From contig JAIZWK010000001.1 in NCBI GenBank assembly GCA_021498095.1, positions 3,060,001 to 3,092,000 on the forward strand: DNA of 32,000 nucleotides. Direction: 5' to 3'. Below are positions 8,117-20,486 of the stretch, piece by piece. The position numbers and the translations under genes were made by a program. The first letter of the stretch is position 1. Each line of letters starts with the position of its first letter. The notes beneath the pieces were generated by a model. It was not told where the DNA came from. It saw nothing but the letters and a program-made list of their open reading frames with translations, and ran no database searches. The stretch is from Candidatus Harpocratesius repetitus (GTDB lineage: Archaea; Asgardarchaeota; Lokiarchaeia; Sigyniarchaeales; Promethearchaeaceae).

Positions 8117-8506
8117 TTAAAACATCAATTGAATATCTGAATTTGTCGCAATCTCAACTAAATCTCCCATAGAACCGATTGTTACAAAATCTAAAAGGAT
8201 ATCTGTCGTAATTCCCCGCTTTTCACAACAAATTCCACAAGCAATAATTTTACCGCCTTCTTCATTGATATTTTTAAGCCATGTTTGCATATTTGGCCCT
8301 TCTTTTGGATCTTGACCTTTAATTGCTAAGGTTACTGCTGCACCTAAAAGAAAAACATTTACAATATGTTCTTGAACAAGGGCAGTTAAAGCAAAACGCA
8401 AACCAGAAAAACTTTTTTCGCTAGTATAAGCATCTTCAGTTATTATTATATAAAACCTCTTTTGTTTATTTTCACTCAATTTTTTTTCAACCCTTTCTTT
8501 TCTCAT
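8117..8506 (-). CDS. DsrE-family sulfur-relay protein, YchN-like, with CxxCC
   Basis: EDAYTSEKSFSGLRFA, VFLLGAAV, GQDPKEGPNMQTWL and ACGICCEKRGI follow the YchN/DsrE pattern. Confidence 0.85.
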   Translation of the reverse strand: MRKERVEKKLSENKQKRFYIIITEDAYTSEKSFSGLRFALTALVQEHIVNVFLLGAAVTLAIKGQDPKEGPNMQTWLKNINEEGGKIIACGICCEKRGITTDILLDFVTIGSMGDLVEIATNSDIQLMF

Positions 8507-8582: not shown

Positions 8583-8819
8583 TTATTTTACACATTCAAA
8601 ATAGAGAAACCATCCTTCATCTTCATCATTTTCTTCTTTTCCTAAGAATTTATGCTTTGTTTTGGCTAAATCTCTTGGAACACTTTCTACTGCGGGTTCA
8701 TAGTCAAGAATTACTTTTAATACTTGCCCAGGACTCATTTTAAGCAGTTTTTTCTTCGTTTTCAAAGCAGGCATGGGACAAACCAAGCCACATACATCCA
8801 GTTCTTCATCATAATCCAT
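8583..8819 (-). CDS. tusA: TusA-family sulfur carrier (copy 1, in the hdr operon)
   Basis: LDVCGLVCPMP (CPxP motif), PGQVLKVILDYEPAVESVP; Shine-Dalgarno-like GAGGT upstream. Confidence 0.9.
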   Translation of the reverse strand: MDYDEELDVCGLVCPMPALKTKKKLLKMSPGQVLKVILDYEPAVESVPRDLAKTKHKFLGKEENDEDEGWFLYFECVK

Positions 8820-8863: not shown

Positions 8864-9292
8864 TTATGTTGTTTTTAAAAAAATAGGATCTCTTTGGTTT
8901 GGAAGAATTTGAAATTCAACTTGATTTAATTCAACTAACCGCAGAGCTTCAAATCTCACTTTTATTGTGGATAAACCTAATAGGTCTGCTATTTTTGGAA
9001 TGGTGCTCTTAGGGTGTTCTTCAATAACTTTTAACACTTTTTCACGTGTGTTTAAAAAGTTTTCAGGATCTTTCTTTTTCCCTCGACGCACCATAGGACA
9101 GCTATTATAACAATTTCCACAAGCTAGACCAATTGTAGTCATAATACATTTCCCTTTTAGAAGTGGGGTTTTTTTTTTCTTCTCATTGACTGTTTCACTC
9201 ATTTCAATGTGTTTACATGATTTTGCACAAATCCCACAACCAATGCATTGATTTGTATCAATAATTTTAGTTTTTAAAAGTTCAAAGCTCAT
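8864..9292 (-). CDS. 2x[4Fe-4S] ferredoxin-like domain fused to a C-terminal winged-helix (HTH) domain
   Basis: CIGCGICAKSC and C...CGNCYNSCP; the N-terminus resembles the ferredoxin module of FrhB/FpoF-like proteins. C-terminal REKVLKVIEEHPKSTIPKIADLLGLSTIKVRFEALRLVELNQV is wHTH-like. Start overlaps the preceding gene by 11 nt. Confidence 0.7.
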   Translation of the reverse strand: MSFELLKTKIIDTNQCIGCGICAKSCKHIEMSETVNEKKKKTPLLKGKCIMTTIGLACGNCYNSCPMVRRGKKKDPENFLNTREKVLKVIEEHPKSTIPKIADLLGLSTIKVRFEALRLVELNQVEFQILPNQRDPIFLKTT

Positions 9293-10574
9293 AATTTTTA
9301 CTCTCCCAATTAGTTATTATACCTCGTGAATCGAGGGTAAATGTTACATTCTTTGAAGAAGAAGTATATGTTCCTTCTTGAATTGGTATAGGATGAGCCC
9401 GAAAATTATCAAAATTCTTAAAAGAATCCAATTTAATTTTCATGCCTCCAAAGTAGAGATTAGACAAATTCATGTTACCTGCTAATTTTCTGATATTTTC
9501 CGTGCTCTCAGCATACAAATTTGGATCCATATTTTCACATGCCAACTTGTATTTCTTTTCCAATTCTAATAGTTGTTCCCTTATTGTCTTTAACTCATTA
9601 TCTAATTCCAATTTAATACCCTTTTCATAAGCATCAAGGATATCAATAGTCATTGAAATGAAACTTTTTCCACCCATCATTCCTGTAATAAGCGGCAATT
9701 CTTCAATCGGTCGTCCAACCATAATATCTGCAATAATATTTCCAGAAGATGGTATTTTACCAGGTGGAATCGGTGAATTTGCCAAAGTAAATCGGAAAAA
9801 GGTACCAACCACATCAGAATAGGCACTTGAAATTTCATCTTCTTCATCAGCTAGCTTATCGGTAGCACCTTTTGAAGATGCTTCAGTGGCAACATCCATT
9901 TGACCCATGAGGGTTCCCATCATTCCAAGCATACGAATTGATGAATCGTCAATAAAGGGATTGCAACCTCGACATGGAGTTCCAAAATCAATACAACGCT
10001 CTTGACAATTATTTGCAATATATCCTGAACATGTATATCCAACATCATTAAAACATTGTTTTTCATCAAGCTCTTGAAGATCGATTTGATGGACAATTTC
10101 TTCTAAGAAGGAACAAGTTGATTCTCTTGGACATTTTTCACATAGTTTTTCAGATTGAAATTGATTATAATCTTTCAATAATGCTAAAAGATGATCACCA
10201 GAGGCTAAGCATCCCCTTATTTCTTGATCTACAGAAATAATTTTAGATATTGGAAAAATTTCTATCCCTTTTTGATATGCTAATCCAAAAATTCCTCCGT
10301 CAGTCGCACAAGATCCAAAAGTAAAAACTTGATTAGCAATTTTTCGAATTTCTTGTAAACAATGAAGATTTTCTGAAGTAGCATATCCTGAGAAAATCGC
10401 AATATCTATTGATGAAGGAAGATTATATTCATCTGTACACCAAATTAACTTCACATCTGTTTCTTCTTCATAATCTTTAACATTACGAACGATTAATTCT
10501 GGATTCCCAATCAGATTAATAATTTCGTTGCGACATTTTGTGCATCCATTTAATTGAAATATTCCAATTTTCAT
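9282..10574 (-). CDS. mvhG: MvhG-like hydrogenase small subunit (3 Fe-S clusters) fused to a degenerate MvhA-like fragment lacking Ni ligands
   Basis: GCTKC, GSCATDGGIFGL, RGC, LCEKCPR, CFNDVGYTC, CQERC, PCRGC and DVVGTFFRFTL align with MvhG (aa 1-272). aa 273-430 contain GRPIEELPLI, as in MvhA just before the L1 motif, but no CxxC. Confidence 0.8.
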   Translation of the reverse strand: MKIGIFQLNGCTKCRNEIINLIGNPELIVRNVKDYEEETDVKLIWCTDEYNLPSSIDIAIFSGYATSENLHCLQEIRKIANQVFTFGSCATDGGIFGLAYQKGIEIFPISKIISVDQEIRGCLASGDHLLALLKDYNQFQSEKLCEKCPRESTCSFLEEIVHQIDLQELDEKQCFNDVGYTCSGYIANNCQERCIDFGTPCRGCNPFIDDSSIRMLGMMGTLMGQMDVATEASSKGATDKLADEEDEISSAYSDVVGTFFRFTLANSPIPPGKIPSSGNIIADIMVGRPIEELPLITGMMGGKSFISMTIDILDAYEKGIKLELDNELKTIREQLLELEKKYKLACENMDPNLYAESTENIRKLAGNMNLSNLYFGGMKIKLDSFKNFDNFRAHPIPIQEGTYTSSSKNVTFTLDSRGIITNWESKNYEL

Positions 10575-10998: not shown

Positions 10999-12999
10999 TT
11001 ACACCCCTTTTTCTAAGATTGGATGCGCCACGGCTTCAATTTCATCTCTTAGTTGTTCTTCTCTATAATTTATCACTTGAATCGCATGTGTTGGACAAGC
11101 AGGCATGCAAATTCCACAGCCTTTGCACCCAACTTCATTTACAACAGGTTTACCATTTTCCCATAAAATTGCTGAAGGTGAACATGCAGTGATGCATGCA
11201 CGACATTTTGTACAAAGATCATAGTCAATTTTTGCAATTATCATCTCTTTTTCTATATATCCTTTTACCAAAGAAGAAACTGCTCCAACAGCAGCTGCAC
11301 TTCCTTGGGCTACTGATTGGGTTATATCTTTTGGTCCTTGAATTGCACCAGCAATAAATATTCCATCTCGACTTGATCTTGTTGGATCCATTTTAATATG
11401 GAATTCTTTAATAAACCCTTCTTTCCCACGAAGCAATTGCAGTCGTGAACCTAATAAACCAACACCTTTTGGGGCAACCATTGCTGCTGAAAGAATTACC
11501 AAATCTGCATGTAATTCCATAGGTTCTGCCATAAAAGTATCTTCAACGTAGACTTTCAAACAATCATTTTCCGGATCTGCCTCAATTTCAGATGGTCTTC
11601 CACGAATGAAGAGTACCCCTTTCTTTTGACATGCTTTATAATATTCTTCATAATATAAACCAGGTGTTCGTATATCAATATAACAAATATATACGTTTGA
11701 ATCTGGATAAGTATCTTTTATAATACCAGCATTTTTAATTGCAAACATGCAACAAACACCTGTACAATATTCATTGCCAACTAATTCATTCCTTGATCCA
11801 ACACATTGAATTATGACTACATTTTTTGGAATCCTTCCATCAGATGGTCTCAATAGTTGACCTCCAGTAAGAGATGTTGGACCCATCATTCTTTCAAATT
11901 GGAGTTGAGTTATTATATTCTCATAACCCGGTATTTTGTAATGATAAGCTTCTATTTCACTGGGATCATATTCTTCATATCCTGTAGCAACAATAATTGA
12001 TCCGACTTTGATTTTAGTTTTACTCTTCTTAAGTGAAAAATCTATTGCATTTACGGGACAAGTCTCAACGCAACGCCCACAATCAATACAATTCTTTCGA
12101 TCAACTACAAATGTTGAAGGAATTGCTTGAGGATATAATTTATAAATTGCCTTTCTAATTCCCATCCCAGAATCCCATTCTGCAGGTAATTCAACCGGAC
12201 ATACACTTGCACATTCTCCACATGAAGTACAATTAGACTTTACATATCGCGGTTTGGTTGTGATTGTGACTGTAAAATTTCCTATACTTCCATCTACAGA
12301 ACTAACTATTGAATTTGTAAATAATGTCACATTTTCATGAGTTGCTACTGCATTCGTAAGTGGTGAAATACTACATTGAGGGCATTCATTTGTTGGAAAT
12401 GTTTTATTTAATTGAGTCATATGTCCACCAATACTTGATTCTCGTTCAACTAAATATACCGGAATTCCTGAATCAGCTGTATCTCGAGCGGCTCTAAGTC
12501 CAGCAATGCCTCCACCAATGACCAATACTGCTTTGGTAATTTGAATTTTCTGTGTTCTAACTTCTTCTAATGTTCGAGCCCGATTAACTCCTGCTTTAAC
12601 TAGTTGTTTTGCTTTTTCAGTGGCTTCAACATGATCTTTTTGATGAACCCAACTATCATGTTCTCGAATATTAACTTGTTGATGAAGATGTTTATTTAAT
12701 CCGACTTCAGAAATTGCACGAGCAAAAGTAGGTCCGTGCTGCGTTTTAGAACAAGAAGCCACCACAGTTCTGGTTAAATTATATTCTTTCACTGCATTTT
12801 TTATTAATTCAATACCTTGTTTAGAGCACATAAACATATTATCTGTAGAAAATTCAACATTTGGAAGAGTTTTTGCATATTCAGCAACTGCTTTTACATC
12901 GACAACATCAGCAATATTATGCCCACAGTGACAAACGAAAACTCCAATACGTTCATTACTTTTCGGATTGTTTTTTTTGTCTTTCTCTTTTTCGACCAT
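10999..12999 (-). CDS. hdrA: Heterodisulfide reductase subunit A (FAD, Fe-S), methanogen-type, Cys form
   Basis: IGVFVCHCG, NIREHDSWVH, VIGGGIAG, KTFPTNECPQC, two inserted CxxCxxCxxxCP, QFERM, CVGSR...YCTGVCCMFAIKNA, GPKDI, C-terminal 2x[4Fe-4S]. Confidence 0.97.
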   Translation of the reverse strand: MVEKEKDKKNNPKSNERIGVFVCHCGHNIADVVDVKAVAEYAKTLPNVEFSTDNMFMCSKQGIELIKNAVKEYNLTRTVVASCSKTQHGPTFARAISEVGLNKHLHQQVNIREHDSWVHQKDHVEATEKAKQLVKAGVNRARTLEEVRTQKIQITKAVLVIGGGIAGLRAARDTADSGIPVYLVERESSIGGHMTQLNKTFPTNECPQCSISPLTNAVATHENVTLFTNSIVSSVDGSIGNFTVTITTKPRYVKSNCTSCGECASVCPVELPAEWDSGMGIRKAIYKLYPQAIPSTFVVDRKNCIDCGRCVETCPVNAIDFSLKKSKTKIKVGSIIVATGYEEYDPSEIEAYHYKIPGYENIITQLQFERMMGPTSLTGGQLLRPSDGRIPKNVVIIQCVGSRNELVGNEYCTGVCCMFAIKNAGIIKDTYPDSNVYICYIDIRTPGLYYEEYYKACQKKGVLFIRGRPSEIEADPENDCLKVYVEDTFMAEPMELHADLVILSAAMVAPKGVGLLGSRLQLLRGKEGFIKEFHIKMDPTRSSRDGIFIAGAIQGPKDITQSVAQGSAAAVGAVSSLVKGYIEKEMIIAKIDYDLCTKCRACITACSPSAILWENGKPVVNEVGCKGCGICMPACPTHAIQVINYREEQLRDEIEAVAHPILEKGV

Positions 13000-13001
13000 T
13001 T

Positions 13002-13955
13002 TTACCCAGCCCCTTCAATAGATTTTTCCTTTATCGATACTTTCTCCATAGGTTCCTTTAATTCTTTAAATTGATAATCTTTTCCATGGGCTTGATATTG
13101 TAAGCCTATTTTCTCCATATCCATTCCCATACACCATGCAGTTAATTGAGACATATGTATTACAGGAATATCAAAATTAGTTCCATAAATTTCGTTTACA
13201 GTAGTTTGGCCACCATCAAATTGTAATTGGCAAAATGGACATGTATCAAAAATAAAATCCGGATTAGCTGCCTGCATATGACCTAATTTTTCTTTCAAAA
13301 TCTTCATAGATGTATTTTTATCAAAGCTAAGAACACCTCCACCTGCACCACAACATGTTAATTTTTGAGCAAAATCAACAGATTTAACACCTAAGGCTTC
13401 GACATATTCCTCCAGAAAGGTTGGAATTTCAGGTGAAGCAAGTTGGCGAATTCTAGAAGGTTTTAAAAGATGGCATCCATAATGAACAGCAGCTCTTGCC
13501 TCTGCTTTTCGAACAATGTATTTCTGAATTTCAGTGGGTCCTACTTCAAAACCGAGAATTTCGGCAATGTGGCGGACTCGAATTGTTCCTTTCCATTGAT
13601 AATCACCCATTTCTTTTAATTTTTCATTAACTTTTGCAGCCATCTCTGGATCAGATTTTAGATGCTTATTTACATCAATTAAAGTTCCAAAGCAACCATT
13701 ACATACGGTTAAAATGTCTGCGTCGTTCTTTTCAGCAATCGCAATATTGCGTGCAGCTGCAACCATCCAATCACTTTTATCAAAAGAACGAAAAACCCCA
13801 GGAGCTGGACAACATGTTGCACGTTCCATTTCCATAAGCGTAAAACCTAATTTTTTCATAACAAACCGGGTTGCAGATTCAATTTGCGGGTAACGATTAG
13901 GCATAATGCATCCTAAAAAGAATGAAAATGTATTTTCTTTTACCATTTCTTTCAC
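13002..13955 (-). CDS. hdrB: Heterodisulfide reductase subunit B (two CCG domains)
   Basis: FLGCIMPNRYP, TCCPAPG, VCNGCFGTL, HYGCHLLKP, TCCGAGGG, CPFCQLQFD. Confidence 0.97.
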   Translation of the reverse strand: MKEMVKENTFSFFLGCIMPNRYPQIESATRFVMKKLGFTLMEMERATCCPAPGVFRSFDKSDWMVAAARNIAIAEKNDADILTVCNGCFGTLIDVNKHLKSDPEMAAKVNEKLKEMGDYQWKGTIRVRHIAEILGFEVGPTEIQKYIVRKAEARAAVHYGCHLLKPSRIRQLASPEIPTFLEEYVEALGVKSVDFAQKLTCCGAGGGVLSFDKNTSMKILKEKLGHMQAANPDFIFDTCPFCQLQFDGGQTTVNEIYGTNFDIPVIHMSQLTAWCMGMDMEKIGLQYQAHGKDYQFKELKEPMEKVSIKEKSIEGAG

Positions 13956-14070: not shown

Positions 14071-14661
14071 TTAACTTAATTTTTCAAAACCATCCAAATT
14101 TTTTCTGGAATTTGCTTTTCTTTCTTTATATTCCTTACCTCTTTCAACAACTCTGAAAAGTTTATGGAAAGGGATAATTTCAGAATTTTCTTCATCGCGA
14201 TATTTATATAATGTTGGTGGAATCGGATCCAATCCTAAGGCTTCTCTTTGCCTTATAATTTTATCATTTATCGGAACCGCATGCCCTGTTGATCGCAGAT
14301 AACCAACAACTGCGGTATGATTAGGACTCATATTCCCAATTTCACTGGCATAATTTCTTAAATCTATTATTACGTCAGTTGGACGAACATCACGTGGACA
14401 ACGTTCATAGCAATTGTAACATGTAGTACAAAGCCAAATGTCTGGATCTTCTAAGACAGATAGATCGCCCAAAGCAGCTTTTCTAACAATTTGCCGTGTA
14501 CGGATAGCAGTCCAACGCCCACTCTCACAAGAAGCTGTACAAGTGCCACATTGAATACAAGAAAAAATATTACTCCTCCGAGCAATATTTTCAAAAAATT
14601 GAGGGTCAAAATCCTCTAATTTTTTATATTTTCGCTTAATTGATATTTCACTTTCAGTCAT
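14071..14661 (-). CDS. hdrC: Heterodisulfide reductase subunit C
   Basis: CIQCGTCTASC and WLCTTCYNCYERCPRDV; TGHAVP. Confidence 0.95.
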   Translation of the reverse strand: MTESEISIKRKYKKLEDFDPQFFENIARRSNIFSCIQCGTCTASCESGRWTAIRTRQIVRKAALGDLSVLEDPDIWLCTTCYNCYERCPRDVRPTDVIIDLRNYASEIGNMSPNHTAVVGYLRSTGHAVPINDKIIRQREALGLDPIPPTLYKYRDEENSEIIPFHKLFRVVERGKEYKERKANSRKNLDGFEKLS

Positions 14662-15007: not shown

Positions 15008-15553
15008 TCAAGGAATTGATATCCTTATATCTTCTTTAACACATTGCAACACAACTTGTGTGTGAATTTCTTCGATGCCTGGAATAAATTTCACTTTTTC
15101 CAATAATTGAATTTGATCCTCTTTTTCAATACATTTTGCCATACAAAATATTGAATAATTTCCAGAAATCTGGTATATTGAATTAATTTTCTCAATTTCA
15201 ATTAATTTATTAAAAATATCTTGAATTGGAATAACATTGTTTACCCGAATTGAGAGTAACAACATTTCTTTATATCCAATCTTGCAACAATCAATTAATG
15301 CAGAATAAGCTTTAATTACACCAGTTTCAGTCAATTTATCTACATGATTTTTTATTGTTGAAACAGATGAATTCAATTTTTTGGCAATTTTTCGAAATGA
15401 AGCTTTTCCATCTTCTTGTAAAATTTGAAGGATCTTTTTATCTATATCACTCAATTCAATTTCTTTATGCATTAGTGATGAATTTTTTATATTGTTTGAG
15501 TTAACTGATTTTTGGACATTATTCAAAATCGGTTCACGAGGCATAATTTTCAC
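15008..15553 (-). CDS. Lrp/AsnC-family transcriptional regulator with five Cys
   Basis: LSDIDKKILQILQEDGKASFRKIAKKLNSSVSTIKNHVDKLTETGVI (HTH) and a RAM-like domain (YQISGNYSIF). The true start may be M28. Confidence 0.9.
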   Translation of the reverse strand: MKIMPREPILNNVQKSVNSNNIKNSSLMHKEIELSDIDKKILQILQEDGKASFRKIAKKLNSSVSTIKNHVDKLTETGVIKAYSALIDCCKIGYKEMLLLSIRVNNVIPIQDIFNKLIEIEKINSIYQISGNYSIFCMAKCIEKEDQIQLLEKVKFIPGIEEIHTQVVLQCVKEDIRISIP

Positions 15554-15674: not shown

Positions 15675-16094
15675 CTATAAAGAAATTACTTGATCTGCAT
15701 CATCAACCATTTCGATAAATTTTGCGGCACCGATAGGTTCTTCGCAGAAATCATGAATCTGTTCTTTCTTTACTCCCATTAAATCCATTGTCATTGAACA
15801 AGGATAGAGTTTAATATTACCTTCTTCAATTCCATCTTTAACCATTTCCCACATATCTTCATATCCAAAGGATTTCAATTTCTTTTTGAACATCATTGCA
15901 GCCATCCCCTTCATAGGGAAGGGCATACCTGCTACTTTTGGTTTAAAATTCTTTTTTAACAAGTTTATACCCCAGAAAGTGAAGAAAAAATTCATTTTTG
16001 TTTCCATTGCGGCACCAGTTGTGCCAAGGATTACCATCATTCCAAATTTCTCAAAACTTTGTTCGGATACGATAAAATTCATAACTTTTGGCAT
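15675..16094 (-). CDS. DsrE2-type (DrsE_2-like) sulfur carrier / peroxiredoxin-like family protein
   Basis: FFFTFWGINLLKK and IKLYPCSMTMDLMGV...GAAKFIE are characteristic of this family. Confidence 0.88.
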   Translation of the reverse strand: MPKVMNFIVSEQSFEKFGMMVILGTTGAAMETKMNFFFTFWGINLLKKNFKPKVAGMPFPMKGMAAMMFKKKLKSFGYEDMWEMVKDGIEEGNIKLYPCSMTMDLMGVKKEQIHDFCEEPIGAAKFIEMVDDADQVISL

Positions 16095-16412: not shown

Positions 16413-17234
16413 ATGGAACGAATACAATTCGCAGAAGAACAAATTCGTCGCTATTCTCGACATATTATATTGCAAGATATAGGATCAACTGGCGTGAAAA
16501 AATTAATTGGATCCACTATAGGCATAGTTGGCGCTGGAGGATTAGGATGTCCAGTAGTTCAAATGTTAGCCGCTGCTGGAATCGGACATCTTAAAATTAT
16601 TGATGGTGATAATGTAGAGCTTTCTAACCTTCCCCGACAACCATTGCATTTCACAACTGATGTTGGACGAAAAAAAGTTGATAGTATTTTAGAAAAAATC
16701 ATTGCTTTAAATTCAGAGATTCAAGTTGAAATTTTTCCAGAATATTTAACAAAAGCAAATGCAATTAAATTCTTGCAAGGTTGTGATTATGTAGTTGATG
16801 CCAGTGATAATTTTGCTACGAAATTTTTGATAAATGATGTTTGCATTCATTTAGGGATACCATTTAATATCGCTGGAGTAGTACAATGGATGGGGCAAAT
16901 TTTATCGGTTGATCCAGGAAAAACAACTTGTTATCGGTGCATTTTTCATACAATCTCTTCTGGGGATGAGTCTATGTCTTGTTCTGCTGCAGGGTTTATC
17001 AACACAGTTCCTAGTTTTGCAGGAATATTGCAAGCAAATGAAGCAATAAAATCAATTGTCGGATTACATCAAAAATTCACTAACGGATTATTTACATTTG
17101 ATTTAAGAGAAAATTCTTTTGATTTCATTCCAATTAAACAAAATCCAGAATGCGCGGCTTGCTCTCATCCAGAAATTCCTTTTTATAAAACAGAAAATTA
17201 TAATGTTGACTTAGATCAATGTAATATTCAGTAA
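16413..17234 (+). CDS. ThiF/MoeB/UbaA-type E1-like adenylyltransferase, no rhodanese domain
   Basis: RYSRHIIL, VGAGGLGC, IDGDNVELSNLPRQ, DASDNFATKFLIND, Zn motifs CYRC and CAAC, candidate catalytic Cys in SCSAAG. Confidence 0.93.
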   Translation: MERIQFAEEQIRRYSRHIILQDIGSTGVKKLIGSTIGIVGAGGLGCPVVQMLAAAGIGHLKIIDGDNVELSNLPRQPLHFTTDVGRKKVDSILEKIIALNSEIQVEIFPEYLTKANAIKFLQGCDYVVDASDNFATKFLINDVCIHLGIPFNIAGVVQWMGQILSVDPGKTTCYRCIFHTISSGDESMSCSAAGFINTVPSFAGILQANEAIKSIVGLHQKFTNGLFTFDLRENSFDFIPIKQNPECAACSHPEIPFYKTENYNVDLDQCNIQ

Positions 17235-17354
17235 TCGATAAAAAGAAAGAAAAATGGGATTCAATATATAAAAAAAAAGTATCTCAAAAATGATTAGATT
17301 AAAAGAATGAATTGAAATTGATGAAAATGCTTAAACTTATCAACACTTGATATA

Positions 17355-17633
17355 TCAAATACGTTCAATCCAAATTGTTTTCACTCCTCTTTTTTCAACG
17401 GAGTGAAGTATTTTTCCTAACTTTTGCTTGGTTACATTTTGTGGAACATTTGTAAATGCAGATGGAAAATCTAAAATCACTCTCAGAATTTCACCCGATT
17501 CCATTTCTTCTAATGCTACTTTAGTGTACACGAATGTCATAGGACACTGCACTCCAATTAGGTCCAACTCTTTACCTTTTTGCATCCATTTAATATTTGA
17601 GTCACTCATATGCATCTTGATCCATCTTTGCAT
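17355..17633 (-). CDS. TusA-family sulfur carrier (copy 2, variant CPMT motif)
   Basis: LDLIGVQCPMTFVYTKVALEEMESGEILRVILD; the true start is probably an internal Met. Confidence 0.85.
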   Translation of the reverse strand: MQRWIKMHMSDSNIKWMQKGKELDLIGVQCPMTFVYTKVALEEMESGEILRVILDFPSAFTNVPQNVTKQKLGKILHSVEKRGVKTIWIERI

Positions 17634-17770
17634 ATAATTTCATTTAATCCTTTGGATTGTTAAAAATCATATAAGAATCTTCATTTCATGAAAATTTATC
17701 AATCAATTTAAAGAAGGAATGGAAAAATCTGCATTTTTAAACACGAACCTTTTACAATATAGCGAGAGCC

Positions 17771-17778
17771 TTTATATG
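17771..17778 (+). promoter_or_regulatory. TATA box for iscS, probably a leaderless transcript
   Basis: TTTATATG begins 30 nt before the ATG at 17801. Confidence 0.5.
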
Positions 17779-17800
17779 TTGGATCTTTTTTTTCCTAAAT

Positions 17801-18988
17801 ATGGAAAAAGATATAGAAAACACCTATATATATTTGGATCATGCAGCCACAACACCTTTAGATCCAATAGTTTTTTCTGAAATGATTCCCTACTTACAAA
17901 ATTACTATGGAAATGCATCTTCAATGCATGGTATTGGCAGATTCTCTAGAAAAGCCATTGAATCTGCCCGCCAACGAATCGCTCAATGTATTGGGGCACA
18001 ACCTGAAGAAATTATATTTACAGGCAGTGGAACAGAAGCAGACAATATTGCCATTATTGGAACTGCTATGAAAATGAAGCGATATGGAAAGCATGTGATT
18101 ACAACAACAATCGAACATCCCGCTGTGCGGAATTGTTTTCGAAAATTGCAGATTGAAGGTTTTGAAGTATCTTATCTTTCTGTTGATAGTGAAGGACGCA
18201 TTTCTGTAGATGAATTTAAGAGACTAATTCGAAAAGATACCATTTTAGTATCTATCATGTATGCAAATAATGAAATCGGAAGTATTCAGCCAATTCAAGA
18301 CATTGCTGAAATAACCAACCAACACGGTATTATTTTTCACACAGATGCGGTTCAAGCTTTTGGAAAATTACCAATAAATGTTCAAAATGAAAAATTTGAT
18401 TTATTATCTGCTTCTGCTCATAAAATTTACGGCCCTAAAGGAATTGGAATGTTGTACATTCGAAATAGAGGTAGAAATCCAAAAAGGGGTGTTTATATTA
18501 TTCCAATTACTTATGGTGGAGGTCAAGAATTTGGATTTCGTTCAGCTACCGAAAATGTGGCAAATATCATTGGATTTGCGAAAGCAGTTGAATTATGTTA
18601 TGAAAATATGGATAAAATTGAAGCTCGATTGAAAAACATGCGCGATGACTTAATAAAATGGATTCTAACTAATATACCAGGAAGTTTTATCAATGGAGGA
18701 TTAAATCACAGACTACCAAATAATATTAATGTTGGATTTGAAGGAATTCAGGGAACAGACTTGCTGAAAAAATTAGATCAAGAGAAAATTGCTGTATCTG
18801 TCGGTTCTGCTTGCCATTCGAAATCTCAAGATGTCTCTTTTGTGCTCACTGCAATAGGATTATCTGAAGAGTTGGCAGCCTCATCCATACGATTAACTTT
18901 AGGAAAAAATACCACAAATGCTCAGCTTGAATATGTTAAAAATACTTTAAAACGTTGTGTGGAAGAATTACGCTTGAAAAATAAATAA
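17801..18988 (+). CDS. iscS: Class I cysteine desulfurase (IscS/NifS-type)
   Basis: YLDHAATTP, GNASSMH, EHPAV, NNEIGSIQP, HTDAVQ, PLP Lys in SAHKIYGPKG, catalytic Cys in SVGSACHS. Confidence 0.96.
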   Translation: MEKDIENTYIYLDHAATTPLDPIVFSEMIPYLQNYYGNASSMHGIGRFSRKAIESARQRIAQCIGAQPEEIIFTGSGTEADNIAIIGTAMKMKRYGKHVITTTIEHPAVRNCFRKLQIEGFEVSYLSVDSEGRISVDEFKRLIRKDTILVSIMYANNEIGSIQPIQDIAEITNQHGIIFHTDAVQAFGKLPINVQNEKFDLLSASAHKIYGPKGIGMLYIRNRGRNPKRGVYIIPITYGGGQEFGFRSATENVANIIGFAKAVELCYENMDKIEARLKNMRDDLIKWILTNIPGSFINGGLNHRLPNNINVGFEGIQGTDLLKKLDQEKIAVSVGSACHSKSQDVSFVLTAIGLSEELAASSIRLTLGKNTTNAQLEYVKNTLKRCVEELRLKNK

Positions 18989-19124
18989 TAACTCAATCAT
19001 TCTTCATCAATATGTGAAAAATTAAGTTCGTTTTGAAAAATTTTTCTGATAGAAATTAAAAATACATCAAAAAGAACATTGAAAAAAATCAACTTATATC
19101 AATAGAATCTTTGCACTTGGTCGA

Positions 19125-19433
19125 TTATAACCAAGACATCAATTTTTCTGCAGCTTCAATTAAATCGATTAAAGTTCCATAGGAAATAGGCTTGATAAAT
19201 TCAAATATTTTTTCTTTTTTTATCCCTCGAGCTTCAAGATCTTCAAGTAAAACGCTAATGGTCCAACCTTGTTTATCAAAATCAATAAATTCTGATTCGC
19301 CTTTGATTGCGCCAAATACTCCATCTTGCATTAAAACTAAATGACAATCTTCCCAATTTTTAGTGAACATTAACAAATCTTGAATTTTTTGATGCTCTAC
19401 TCCAGATTGTCCATATAATATTAAGTGTTTCAT
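19125..19433 (-). CDS. dsrH: DsrH/TusB-family subunit
   Basis: LVLMQDGVFGAI...VLLEDLEARGI...ISYGTLIDLIE; GGAGG ribosome-binding site; third gene of the dsrE-F-H run. Confidence 0.85.
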   Translation of the reverse strand: MKHLILYGQSGVEHQKIQDLLMFTKNWEDCHLVLMQDGVFGAIKGESEFIDFDKQGWTISVLLEDLEARGIKKEKIFEFIKPISYGTLIDLIEAAEKLMSWL

Positions 19434-19454
19434 ACATTCATTCCTCCATTTTTT

Positions 19455-19820
19455 TTACATATGGAACACCATCGAATATTCATCGATGATTCCGGGAAGG
19501 TCGTCTCGATTTACTACAGTCAACGCTTCATAATCAATAAGATCTTCTTCTGAAAATCCAAATTGGAAAAGGTCTTCACGAACAACGACAATTGGAAGTT
19601 CAGTTAAATCGGCCATCTCTATACCTTCGTCCATAGCATCCATATTAACTCTTTCTGGATTTAGATTATTTACTAGGTTAGTCACACCAGCTTGATAAAA
19701 TACTAATTTGCAATCTATATCTTCCCCTAAGCCCAAATATCCTGCACCTAATCTTATTGCTTCAACACCGGAATTTGTACCAAAGGGACCATTCTTGCAT
19801 AAAATTAAAACAGATTCCAC
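19455..19820 (-). CDS. dsrF: DsrF/TusC-family subunit
   Basis: ILCKNGPFGTNSGVEAIRLGAG, LVFYQAGV, VVREDL..FG; GTG start with GGAGG upstream. Confidence 0.85.
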   Translation of the reverse strand: MESVLILCKNGPFGTNSGVEAIRLGAGYLGLGEDIDCKLVFYQAGVTNLVNNLNPERVNMDAMDEGIEMADLTELPIVVVREDLFQFGFSEEDLIDYEALTVVNRDDLPGIIDEYSMVFHM

Positions 19821-19860
19821 TTTTTTGCCTCCATACTATTTAATGAAATACTATCATGCA

Positions 19861-20214
19861 TTAAGCATGATTACCAAAAACAATCACCTTATCTGCTGTT
19901 GCAGTTAAATTTGATAATTCACCTAAACCAGTTATATCTGCTCCATCAATTGCATTCTCTTTAAAAATTGCAAAATTATCTGCCCATGTTTGGCATGCTA
20001 TGATTGGAACACCTAACTTTTCTAATTCTGAGGGAATATTACGAGTATTTTTCCCTAAATGAGCACCTTTTTGAATATTAAGAACACCACTTCCAAAAAA
20101 GAAAATGCCCAAAATTTCGTGGTTTTTTTCTTTTGCAGCATGTACAATATTCAAGAGAGTATAAACAGGTTGAAATTTTAGGAATTCAGTCATTACAACA
20201 AAAGCTAGCTTCAT
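19861..20214 (-). CDS. dsrE: DsrE/TusD-family subunit carrying the conserved sulfur-accepting Cys
   Basis: HEILGIFFFGSGVLN, IIACQTWA, GLGELSNLTATADKVIVF. The start is placed at M18 of the 19861-20265 ORF (GGAG upstream); the extra N-terminus overlaps a T-rich tract. Confidence 0.85.
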   Translation of the reverse strand: MKLAFVVMTEFLKFQPVYTLLNIVHAAKEKNHEILGIFFFGSGVLNIQKGAHLGKNTRNIPSELEKLGVPIIACQTWADNFAIFKENAIDGADITGLGELSNLTATADKVIVFGNHA

Positions 20215-20261
20215 TTGTTCATTCTCCATCAATATGATTGAAAAAAAAAGAAAAAATAAAA

Positions 20262-20486
20262 TCAATCTTTTTTAATTAAAAACGTAAAAACACCATTATC
20301 TTCCTTCATCTCTACCAGGGTGCATCCTGTCTTTTTTAATAACGGAGGTATATCGACTTTTGCACCTGCATCATCAGCCACAAACTCGAAAGTTTGTCCT
20401 GAAGTCATTTTTTTGATTATTTTTTTTGTTTTCAGGACGGGCATGGGACATTTGAGTCCTTTAAAATCTTCTGTAAAATCTGCCAT
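20262..20486 (-). CDS. tusA: TusA-family sulfur carrier (copy 3, heading the dsrEFH run)
   Basis: EDFKGLKCPMPVLKTKK...SGQTFEFVADDAGAKVDIP; the start is placed at M13 of the 20262-20522 ORF. Confidence 0.9.
   Translation of the reverse strand: MADFTEDFKGLKCPMPVLKTKKIIKKMTSGQTFEFVADDAGAKVDIPPLLKKTGCTLVEMKEDNGVFTFLIKKD

Follow-up and report, generated by a model that had tools for sequence, protein, structure and literature searches.

What does a hydrogenase-type small subunit do when a piece resembling the large subunit (LSU) is joined to its own C-terminus and no gene for a complete LSU lies nearby? This question is raised by a gene of the Asgard archaeon Candidatus Harpocratesius repetitus, here called mvhG*, which lies in a stretch of 32,000 nucleotides (the window; GenBank assembly GCA_021498095.1, contig JAIZWK010000001.1, positions 3,060,001 to 3,092,000). 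Our analysis suggests that its product (P0001) is probably an MvhG-type small subunit carrying three clusters and extended by a colinear group-3 LSU derivative free of conserved cysteines, and that it acts as the H2-independent donor arm of an Hdr complex. The parts of the gene referred to below are as follows.

9282 to 10574, minus strand: mvhG*, MvhG-type small subunit with a fused mini large subunit; open reading frame (ORF) of 430 aa plus stop
9759 to 10574, minus strand: mvhG* core, aa 1-272; flavodoxin-like domain, 13 conserved Cys and the MvhG C-terminal helix region
9285 to 9758, minus strand: mvhG* tail, aa 273-430; Ni-less, internally deleted LSU core of four helices and a three-stranded meander
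9663 to 9716, minus strand: L1-equivalent segment, aa 287-304 (GRPIEELPLITGMMGGKS)
9441 to 9482, minus strand: invariant loop AGNMNLSN...GGM, aa 365-378
9300 to 9383, minus strand: terminal three-stranded meander, aa 398-425

The core of the protein is readily assigned. Oxidored_q6 is the sole Pfam domain in P0001 (PF01058, aa 51-134, E 7e-12) and the best NCBIfam model is VhuG, at 64 bits against a cut-off of 450 that is not reached, while with a profile of 40 homologues the solved MvhG chains 5odc_E and 9sw2_E are found at E ~1e-23. Homology to these chains stops at about aa 270, a few residues short of their own ends, and therefore aa 273-430 constitute a genuinely extra domain. A preliminary description of the locus had reported a full MvhG domain with the 12 expected Cys ligands, and the alignment bears this out with 13 cysteines conserved in 39-40 of the 40 homologues: C11, C14, C89 and C122 of the proximal cluster, and C145, C148, C154, C174, C182, C190, C194, C201 and C204 for the medial and distal clusters. 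Judged from the alignment, these would suffice for three [4Fe-4S] clusters. P0001 thus has the Oxidored_q6 domain and the cysteines for three Fe-S clusters that mark MvhG/VhuG proteins, but it is not encoded together with a catalytic LSU in any of the mvhG* loci examined.

A Foldseek search with the model of the whole protein returned small subunits only (MvhG match at E 7e-13) and therefore the tail was modelled separately. The AlphaFold2 model of the tail alone, built from the family alignment, has a predicted local distance difference test score (pLDDT) of 91.6 and consists of four helices, a loop and a three-stranded meander; in the model of whole P0001, with a predicted template modelling score (pTM) of 0.84, the tail also exceeds a pLDDT of 90. 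The leading Foldseek matches of the tail model in the PDB were all LSUs (SHI alpha, FrhA, HoxH, MvhA) or NuoD, with E-values of 0.01-0.04 and a template modelling score of 0.5. Superposition on these matches with VIA-align gave Z-scores of 11-13.6, with 150-152 of the 163 residues aligned at 2.8-3.0 A root-mean-square deviation (rmsd). In an exhaustive fold search of 48,161 representative PDB chains, which is independent of Foldseek, the top 15 chains were all LSU, NuoD, NdhH, MbhL, MbsL or HycE (Z 8.8-12.6, 147-163 residues).

Such a likeness could in principle be convergent, the tail being an unrelated helical bundle with a beta hairpin, and the routine sequence searches leave room for this idea. 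Pfam and NCBIfam assign no meaningful family to the tail alone, the 25 families listed, out of 51 with a match at E <= 10 to any of the 40 tails, do not include PF00374, and hmmsearch of the tail profile against PDB sequences found FrhA alone, in the right place and not significant (E 1.5). Generic helical bundles, however, appear in the exhaustive search only below the 15 leading chains, at Z 5.3 with ~85 residues aligned, against Z 9-13 and ~151 residues for the LSUs. The tail profile, searched with hmmsearch against 1.84 billion proteins, also matches two LSUs confirmed by Pfam as NiFeSe_Hases (E 1.8e-4 and 4.8e-4). One of these, P0264, which is closest to Pyrococcus furiosus sulfhydrogenase alpha (E 1.6e-60), aligns with the tail alignment in hhalign at 95.6% probability (P 1e-8), with tail residues 11-73 lying on LSU residues 37-99. 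The start of this register is the structural one (model residues 10-11 on chain residues 38-41). Alignment with the genome's own LSU, VhuA, is weak and in the right register (P 0.013 with the single sequence, P 0.003 with a 24-sequence Asgard profile). With the same register found by structure and by significant profile matches to true LSUs, convergence is exceedingly improbable. The tail has both the core fold of the LSU superfamily and significant sequence similarity to its bona fide members, and it is a true relative of the [NiFe]-hydrogenase LSU, as the preliminary description had proposed in calling it a nickel-less piece of the large subunit.

The same description took the tail for a circularly permuted LSU fragment, in which the last 30 residues would be the extreme N-terminal strands of the LSU moved to the end. 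The resemblance of motifs on which this was based is real (an EG followed by a strand, D..G and another strand), and hhalign of the beta part of the tail scores LSU residues 4-39 slightly higher (12.9, P 0.03) than the APRG region (11.8, P 0.07). Neither score is significant, however, and together with a further run against the middle region of the LSU the sequence could not separate the options. The superpositions in sequence order already include the terminal strands, covering the LSU from the L1 region (~38-41) to the end of the APRG meander, and a permuted meander could not be aligned in this order. In the LSUs tested, the aligned range always closes just past the third strand of that meander: the last aligned residue is 379 of 428 in SHI alpha, 400 in MvhA (5odc_F) and 503 in Hyd-2, where the canopy arginine is R479. 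The corresponding landmarks of P0264 are EAPRG at 343 and ITPT at 367. The distance from E400-G401 to the end of the tail (25-29 residues) is close to that from the canopy arginine to the end of the meander (~24), and the E-G pair would occupy the arginine position in P0001.

Since the in-order alignment takes in the strands and stops at the APRG meander, the models identify the terminal strands of the tail with this meander and not with the N-terminal one. Both LSU meanders have similar patterns, which makes the likeness to the N-terminal meander understandable. Permutation is not upheld by 150-152 of 163 residues superposing in sequence order, and we regard it as improbable. On the models, the tail corresponds to LSU residues ~37-165, with ~27 residues lost inside, a 19-residue linker and residues ~340-370. 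Missing from it are LSU residues 1-36 (N-terminal meander) and ~165-340 (central domain) as well as the L2 C-terminus, about 65% of the LSU. The retained parts are the L1 helix and the three helices that follow it, the Gly-rich loop and the APRG-type meander.

The tail motifs quoted in the preliminary description are all present in P0001, namely the L1-equivalent segment, AGNMNLSN...FGGM at 365-378 and IQEGT...GIITNW at 398-423. Its alignment of L1 RICGIC with MMGGKS is likewise recovered, since hhalign places MMGGKS opposite RICGIC of VhuA and, in the same register, opposite RICGAC of the group-3b-like LSU P0264. The positions of the Ni-ligand cysteines of L1 are occupied by G and S in P0001 and by Y/F and K/R in divergent members (IYGSK, IYGSR, VFGVR), and none of the 40 aligned members has a cysteine in these columns. 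The single cysteine of the tail, C346, is non-conserved (2 of 40 members). No L2 DPCxxC motif is present in any of the 40 aligned members, as the chain stops about 5 residues past the last strand. The loss of both Ni ligands and of L2 claimed earlier is thus evident, and none of the marks of a functional LSU (L1 RxCGxC, L2 DPCxxC, a PF00374 match among the families listed) is found in the tail. Lacking the L2 C-terminus, and the N-terminal meander and central domain as well, the tail cannot bind Ni-Fe.

The loss of the active site has not been accompanied by a loss of conservation in what is left. Long invariant strings of the tail in the 40 sequences are GR.IEE.PLI.G..GG, AYE and AGNMNLSN..(F/Y)GG(F/M/I), and the GNMNLSN loop, the most invariant motif of the whole family, sits in the tail. 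By its spacing from GGM, the AGNMNLSN...GGM loop appears to be the counterpart of the LSU loop GGK..HP....GGM, one residue shorter. Counting back from GGM, the position of the invariant LSU histidine would fall on Asn369 or Leu370 in P0001, so that the histidine itself would be missing. In hydrogenases this residue (His229) points at and touches the proximal cluster (PMC3940037). Since the GNMNLSN loop matches the place of GGK..HP....GG, the most strictly kept part of the LSU would therefore be the part that covers the proximal cluster.

A divergent clade of the fusion (P0249, P0251, P0253 and P0260; P0251 at L004:8001-9266) ends in a conserved ..GI(I/L)REWSCE(L/F), with a cysteine three residues from the C-terminus that is absent from the clade of the window. 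P0251, P0252 and P0255 keep GCPP at the fourth proximal-cluster cysteine, and P0252 and P0255 end in ..GWENEIL and ..GWEYEIY.

The fusion is conserved. A word-indexed search found more than 100 full-length relatives of 406-437 aa, named after metagenome-assembled genomes of Promethearchaeota/Lokiarchaeota, Hodarchaeota, Thorarchaeota and Odinarchaeota. The cultured Promethearchaeum syntrophicum MK-D1 also carries it (DSAG12_01149, listed as 'hypothetical protein'), and some homologues have been named 'coenzyme F420-reducing hydrogenase gamma subunit' by JGI. In a search with the tail profile of 201 sampled genomes of the phylum, one per species, the tail was found in 22 (21 of the 86 high-quality genomes), as one copy each and spread over three families; it is lacking in two sampled genomes of the window's own genus. 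The matches always lie within an open frame of ~410-450 aa, save at contig ends. The exhaustive HMMER search of 1.84 billion representatives gave only 23 clusters, the shorter matches looking like fragments. The domain is on this account rare and, as far as seen, always joined to an MvhG-type small subunit.

Mean column identity in the 40-sequence alignment is 59% for the tail against 61% for the whole protein. The tail gives pN 0.089, pS 0.655 and a dN/dS of ~0.06 when set against the closest relative (85% aa identity), and the core gives 0.08; the ratio is approximate because dS is near saturation, and purifying selection is still clear. The fusion is thus conserved and held by purifying selection, and the word 'vestigial' used for the tail in the preliminary description does not hold for a domain with this dN/dS and with the most invariant motif of its family. 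Misassembly or a pseudogene is ruled out by the intact fusion in more than 100 clusters and 22 sampled genomes and by the dN/dS of 0.06.

The surroundings of mvhG* give an indication of its role. In the window it belongs to a tightly packed, co-oriented operon in the order hdrC, hdrB, hdrA, mvhD, mvhG*, ferredoxin-wHTH (wHTH, winged helix-turn-helix), tusA and dsrE-family gene, the partners having been assigned by Pfam.

14071 to 14661, minus strand: hdrC
13002 to 13955, minus strand: hdrB, two CCG domains
10999 to 12999, minus strand: hdrA, 666 aa
10571 to 10990, minus strand: mvhD (FlpD, [2Fe-2S] connector), overlapping the start of mvhG*
8864 to 9292, minus strand: 2x[4Fe-4S] ferredoxin with wHTH, 142 aa; 11-nt overlap with the mvhG* stop
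8583 to 8819, minus strand: tusA
8117 to 8506, minus strand: dsrE-family gene

No Hyp or LSU family had a Pfam match among the window ORFs scanned (these include the whole hdr operon and its neighbours on either side; several ORFs at the window ends were not among them). The earlier remark that the window holds no mvhA gene stands, the only PF00374 match of the genome being 1.56 Mb away, and for hyp genes it stands within these limits. The window was compared with six full loci, L003 (MK-D1), L004, L006 (on a 474-kb Asgard contig), L008, L009 and L010, and with L007, a fragment of 2.9 kb in which nothing but the upstream gene, mvhD and mvhG* can be seen. No LSU gene is found near mvhG* within the stretches examined of the window and these six loci. 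mvhD always precedes mvhG*, and hdr genes, in the order hdr(C)BA, lie upstream wherever the contig reaches.

The gene that follows mvhG* varies between lineages. In L003 and L006 an 820-aa protein is encoded next to mvhG*, followed by tusA, with tusA-dsrEFH-dsrE2 upstream; in the divergent lineage L004 mvhG* is followed by a 345-aa FrhB. In the window's clade, which comprises four genomes (the window and L008-L010), the slot of the FrhB/GltD-type genes is taken by a ferredoxin-wHTH protein of 142-144 aa, followed by tusA. tusA and dsrE genes flank the operon in all lineages examined. The 820-aa protein (L003:9260-11719, L006:8239-10707) has a GltD/NfnB-type module (Fer4_20 and Pyr_redox_2) inserted between FrhB_N and FrhB_C halves, and this FrhB_N-GltD-FrhB_C protein may be an input module for NAD(P)H/F420.

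Upstream of the hdr operon in the window lie a regulator, a DsrE2-type gene and a sulfur-relay island (16413-20265).

15008 to 15553: AsnC/Lrp regulator
15675 to 16094: DsrE2-type gene
16413 to 17234: ThiF/E1-like gene (sulfur-relay island)
17801 to 18988: IscS-type cysteine desulfurase (sulfur-relay island)
19125 to 20265: dsrE-dsrE-dsrH (sulfur-relay island)

The gene neighbourhoods, with no LSU gene and with an FrhB/GltD-type or ferredoxin-wHTH gene next to mvhG*, fit the suggestion, made in the preliminary description, of an Fe-S wire with a structural cap that is fed by a donor other than H2. FrhB/FdhB proteins oxidize F420H2 and pass the electrons to Fe-S chains, and MvhD is the link from donor arms to HdrA. 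The mini-LSU would sit on the small subunit at the usual place of the LSU, where the invariant GNMNLSN loop, in place of the His loop, would cover and tune the proximal cluster. Loss of two thirds of the LSU may leave the proximal end accessible to another redox module. In most lineages the donor would be the adjoining FrhB/GltD-type protein oxidizing F420H2 or NAD(P)H, and in the window's clade it may be the 2x[4Fe-4S] ferredoxin-wHTH protein. Electrons would then pass from the proximal to the medial and distal clusters, on to the [2Fe-2S] cluster of MvhD and to the flavin of HdrA, where they would bifurcate to ferredoxin and to the disulfide/persulfide site of HdrBC. Asgard archaea are not known to make CoM-S-S-CoB, and for this reason the substrate of HdrBC is probably a sulfur-relay persulfide or disulfide; the site is probably served by the neighbouring TusA/DsrE proteins.

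Several observations weigh against this scheme. The window's own operon has no FrhB-type gene. The sole FrhB-family gene of the genome (L011:7755-8861, G000:C1 ~2,343,754-2,344,860; 369 aa with FrhB_FdhB_C and two 4Fe-4S motifs) lies 0.7 Mb away as an orphan, surrounded by unrelated genes (thiolase, helicase). The FrhB of Frh docks at the distal cluster, and the truncated ElpA of Elp-Hdr lies outside the main electron path. By analogy, the donor of MvhG* could also bind at the distal cluster; its proximal and medial clusters would then form a side branch. We infer the placement of the tail over the proximal cluster from homology and from the whole-protein pTM of 0.84. A complex prediction for MvhG* and the ferredoxin-wHTH protein scored 0.00 without controls and speaks neither for nor against binding. 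On balance, the wire and cap mechanism of MvhG* is plausible but inferred.

Alternatively, the mini-LSU and the proximal [4Fe-4S] cluster might together make up a separate site for catalysis or substrate docking, comparable to those of MBS or complex I, so that MvhG* would be an enzyme for a TusA/DsrE persulfide or a small molecule rather than a wire. MBS catalyses sulfane-sulfur reduction at a cluster, and complex I has a quinone site. Ni-less MbsL (6u8y_l, Z 9.9) and NuoD chains (Z 10-12), both of which form such sites, are among the structural matches of the tail; the most invariant motif of the family lies where the LSU loop meets the proximal cluster; and tusA/dsrE genes flank the operon in every lineage examined. 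However, the CCG domains of HdrB already provide a disulfide/persulfide site, the next gene mostly encodes a dedicated FrhB/GltD dehydrogenase, which suits an input arm, and no constellation of Cys, His or Tyr is common to the divergent tails. We consider an enzymatic site of this kind rather unlikely. Its more specific form, a new Ni-free active or docking site within a soluble bifurcating complex, for example for redox chemistry on TusA/DsrE persulfide catalysed by the cluster, as MBS performs with polysulfide, is distinctly unlikely. If it were true, the Asgard Hdr complex would have two sulfur-handling ends, and the fusion would record, in a soluble enzyme, the transition from hydrogenase to non-hydrogenase that gave complex I.

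A third possibility is that MvhG* serves a real hydrogenase by pairing in trans with the genome's only LSU. The genome has a single PF00374 match, 1.56 Mb from mvhG*: VhuA, of 445 aa with RICGIC present, which ends in ..LPDPWLK and is followed by a 49-aa VhuU-like ORF with an in-frame TGA (selenocysteine) in ..RCYDC-U-LSCAAH... Genome-wide there are two small-subunit-type genes and five MvhD domains, so that one selenocysteine-type LSU (VhuA and VhuU) faces two small-subunit-type proteins. VhuA has its own small subunit in its own operon, however, and the fused mini-LSU presumably fills the docking face for an LSU. Considering also that no LSU gene lies near mvhG* in the window or the six full loci, pairing in trans is highly unlikely. 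The VhuA locus (L002:7708-11829) has an unusual order, with a 455-aa small subunit, hdrC, hdrB, vhuA and vhuU, and contains neither mvhD nor hdrA.

We compared the MvhG* arm with the donor arms and LSU homologues that are already known. The small-subunit part matches MvhG best, and the partners mvhD and hdrABC are shared with the Mvh-Hdr complexes of group 3c (MvhAG/VhuAG; 5ODC, 9SW2). In fold, the tail agrees with the core of MvhA (5odc_F; rmsd 2.9 A over 152 residues, Z 11.2). In contrast to MvhAG, the LSU of MvhG* is cut from ~450 to ~160 aa and fused, has no L1/L2 cysteines or Ni-Fe site, and has no LSU gene in the operon beside it. The best structural match of the tail, alpha of the Pyrococcus furiosus SHI (group 3b; 9NEZ, 9E15; Z 13.6), is unlike the tail a complete Ni-Fe enzyme subunit, and the small-subunit half of MvhG* is nearer to MvhG than to SHI delta. 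NuoD/49-kDa, NdhH and MbsL (Z 9-12) are members of the same superfamily that no longer carry the Ni-ligand cysteines and that pair with a NuoB/small-subunit-type [4Fe-4S] protein. However, they are near full-length (370-590 aa), separate or fused to NuoC, and act in membrane complexes with quinone or polysulfide sites, whereas the tail, a soluble core of 160 aa, is part of the small-subunit polypeptide.

The closest functional parallel may be Elp-Hdr of Methanothermobacter marburgensis, where an F420H2-dependent donor arm, which takes the place of Mvh, has retained a truncated FdhA without cofactor (PMC12350162). Like ElpABC-HdrABC, which combines such a remnant with an MvhD homologue and an F420H2-oxidizing subunit of the FdhB/FrhB type (PMC12350162), the mvhG* operon of the window has a cofactor-less remnant and an MvhD homologue beside hdrABC. 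The FdhB/FrhB-type subunit is present after mvhG* in L003, L004 and L006, with the Fer4/wHTH protein instead in the window's clade. The two arms differ in that ElpA derives from the formate dehydrogenase FdhA and is a separate polypeptide, while the MvhG* tail derives from a hydrogenase and is fused, and in that the window's operon has the ferredoxin-wHTH gene and not FrhB. By this analogy the MvhG* arm is most likely the hydrogenase-derived counterpart of ElpABC-Hdr.

Ni-less LSU homologues (NuoD, NdhH, MbsL) were already known, as was ElpA, the truncated remnant of a catalytic subunit within an Hdr donor arm; what is new here is the joining, in a soluble Hdr operon, of a small subunit to an LSU core of 160 aa. 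Full-text literature searches, including the MK-D1 paper, a survey of archaeal fusions, comparative genomics of ANME archaea and the Hdr supercomplex papers, found no description of an MvhG-mini-LSU fusion. The tail shows what minimal LSU core is kept after catalysis has been lost, namely the L1 helix bundle, the proximal-cluster loop and the APRG meander, and it is a natural experiment on the role of the LSU for the small subunit's proximal cluster, with parallels in ElpA (truncated FdhA) and NuoD. Asgard archaea are central to the syntrophy and hydrogen models of the origin of eukaryotes, and their Hdr/Mvh gene sets are usually read as an 'MvhADG-HdrABC hydrogenase'; MK-D1 has been described with one hydrogenase of the MvhADG-HdrABC type (PMC7015854). 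The conserved hdrABC-mvhD-mvhG* cluster, including that of MK-D1, cannot encode a hydrogenase; its electrons most likely come from F420H2, NAD(P)H or ferredoxin, and it is most likely tied to a sulfur relay. Use of MvhG or MvhD as markers of H2 metabolism in metabolic reconstructions would lead to an overcount.

A few further features were seen in the genome and its relatives. In the genome of the window the LSU is split in the Methanococcus style into VhuA and VhuU (L002:10495-12015, G000:C1 ~1,498,494-1,500,014), and in the 455-aa small subunit of that locus an insert of ~150 aa separates the proximal-cluster domain from the medial/distal Cys region. In GCA_029935835.1 (L008:2692-4549) no hdrA was called between hdrB and mvhD, and the gap is of the right size; the missing call could reflect a selenocysteine TGA or a frameshift in hdrA. 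One of the MvhD/FlpD domains, ~64 kb past the window end (G000:C1:3155960-3156328, minus strand), contains two in-frame TGA codons and is probably a selenocysteine protein of the VhuD type.

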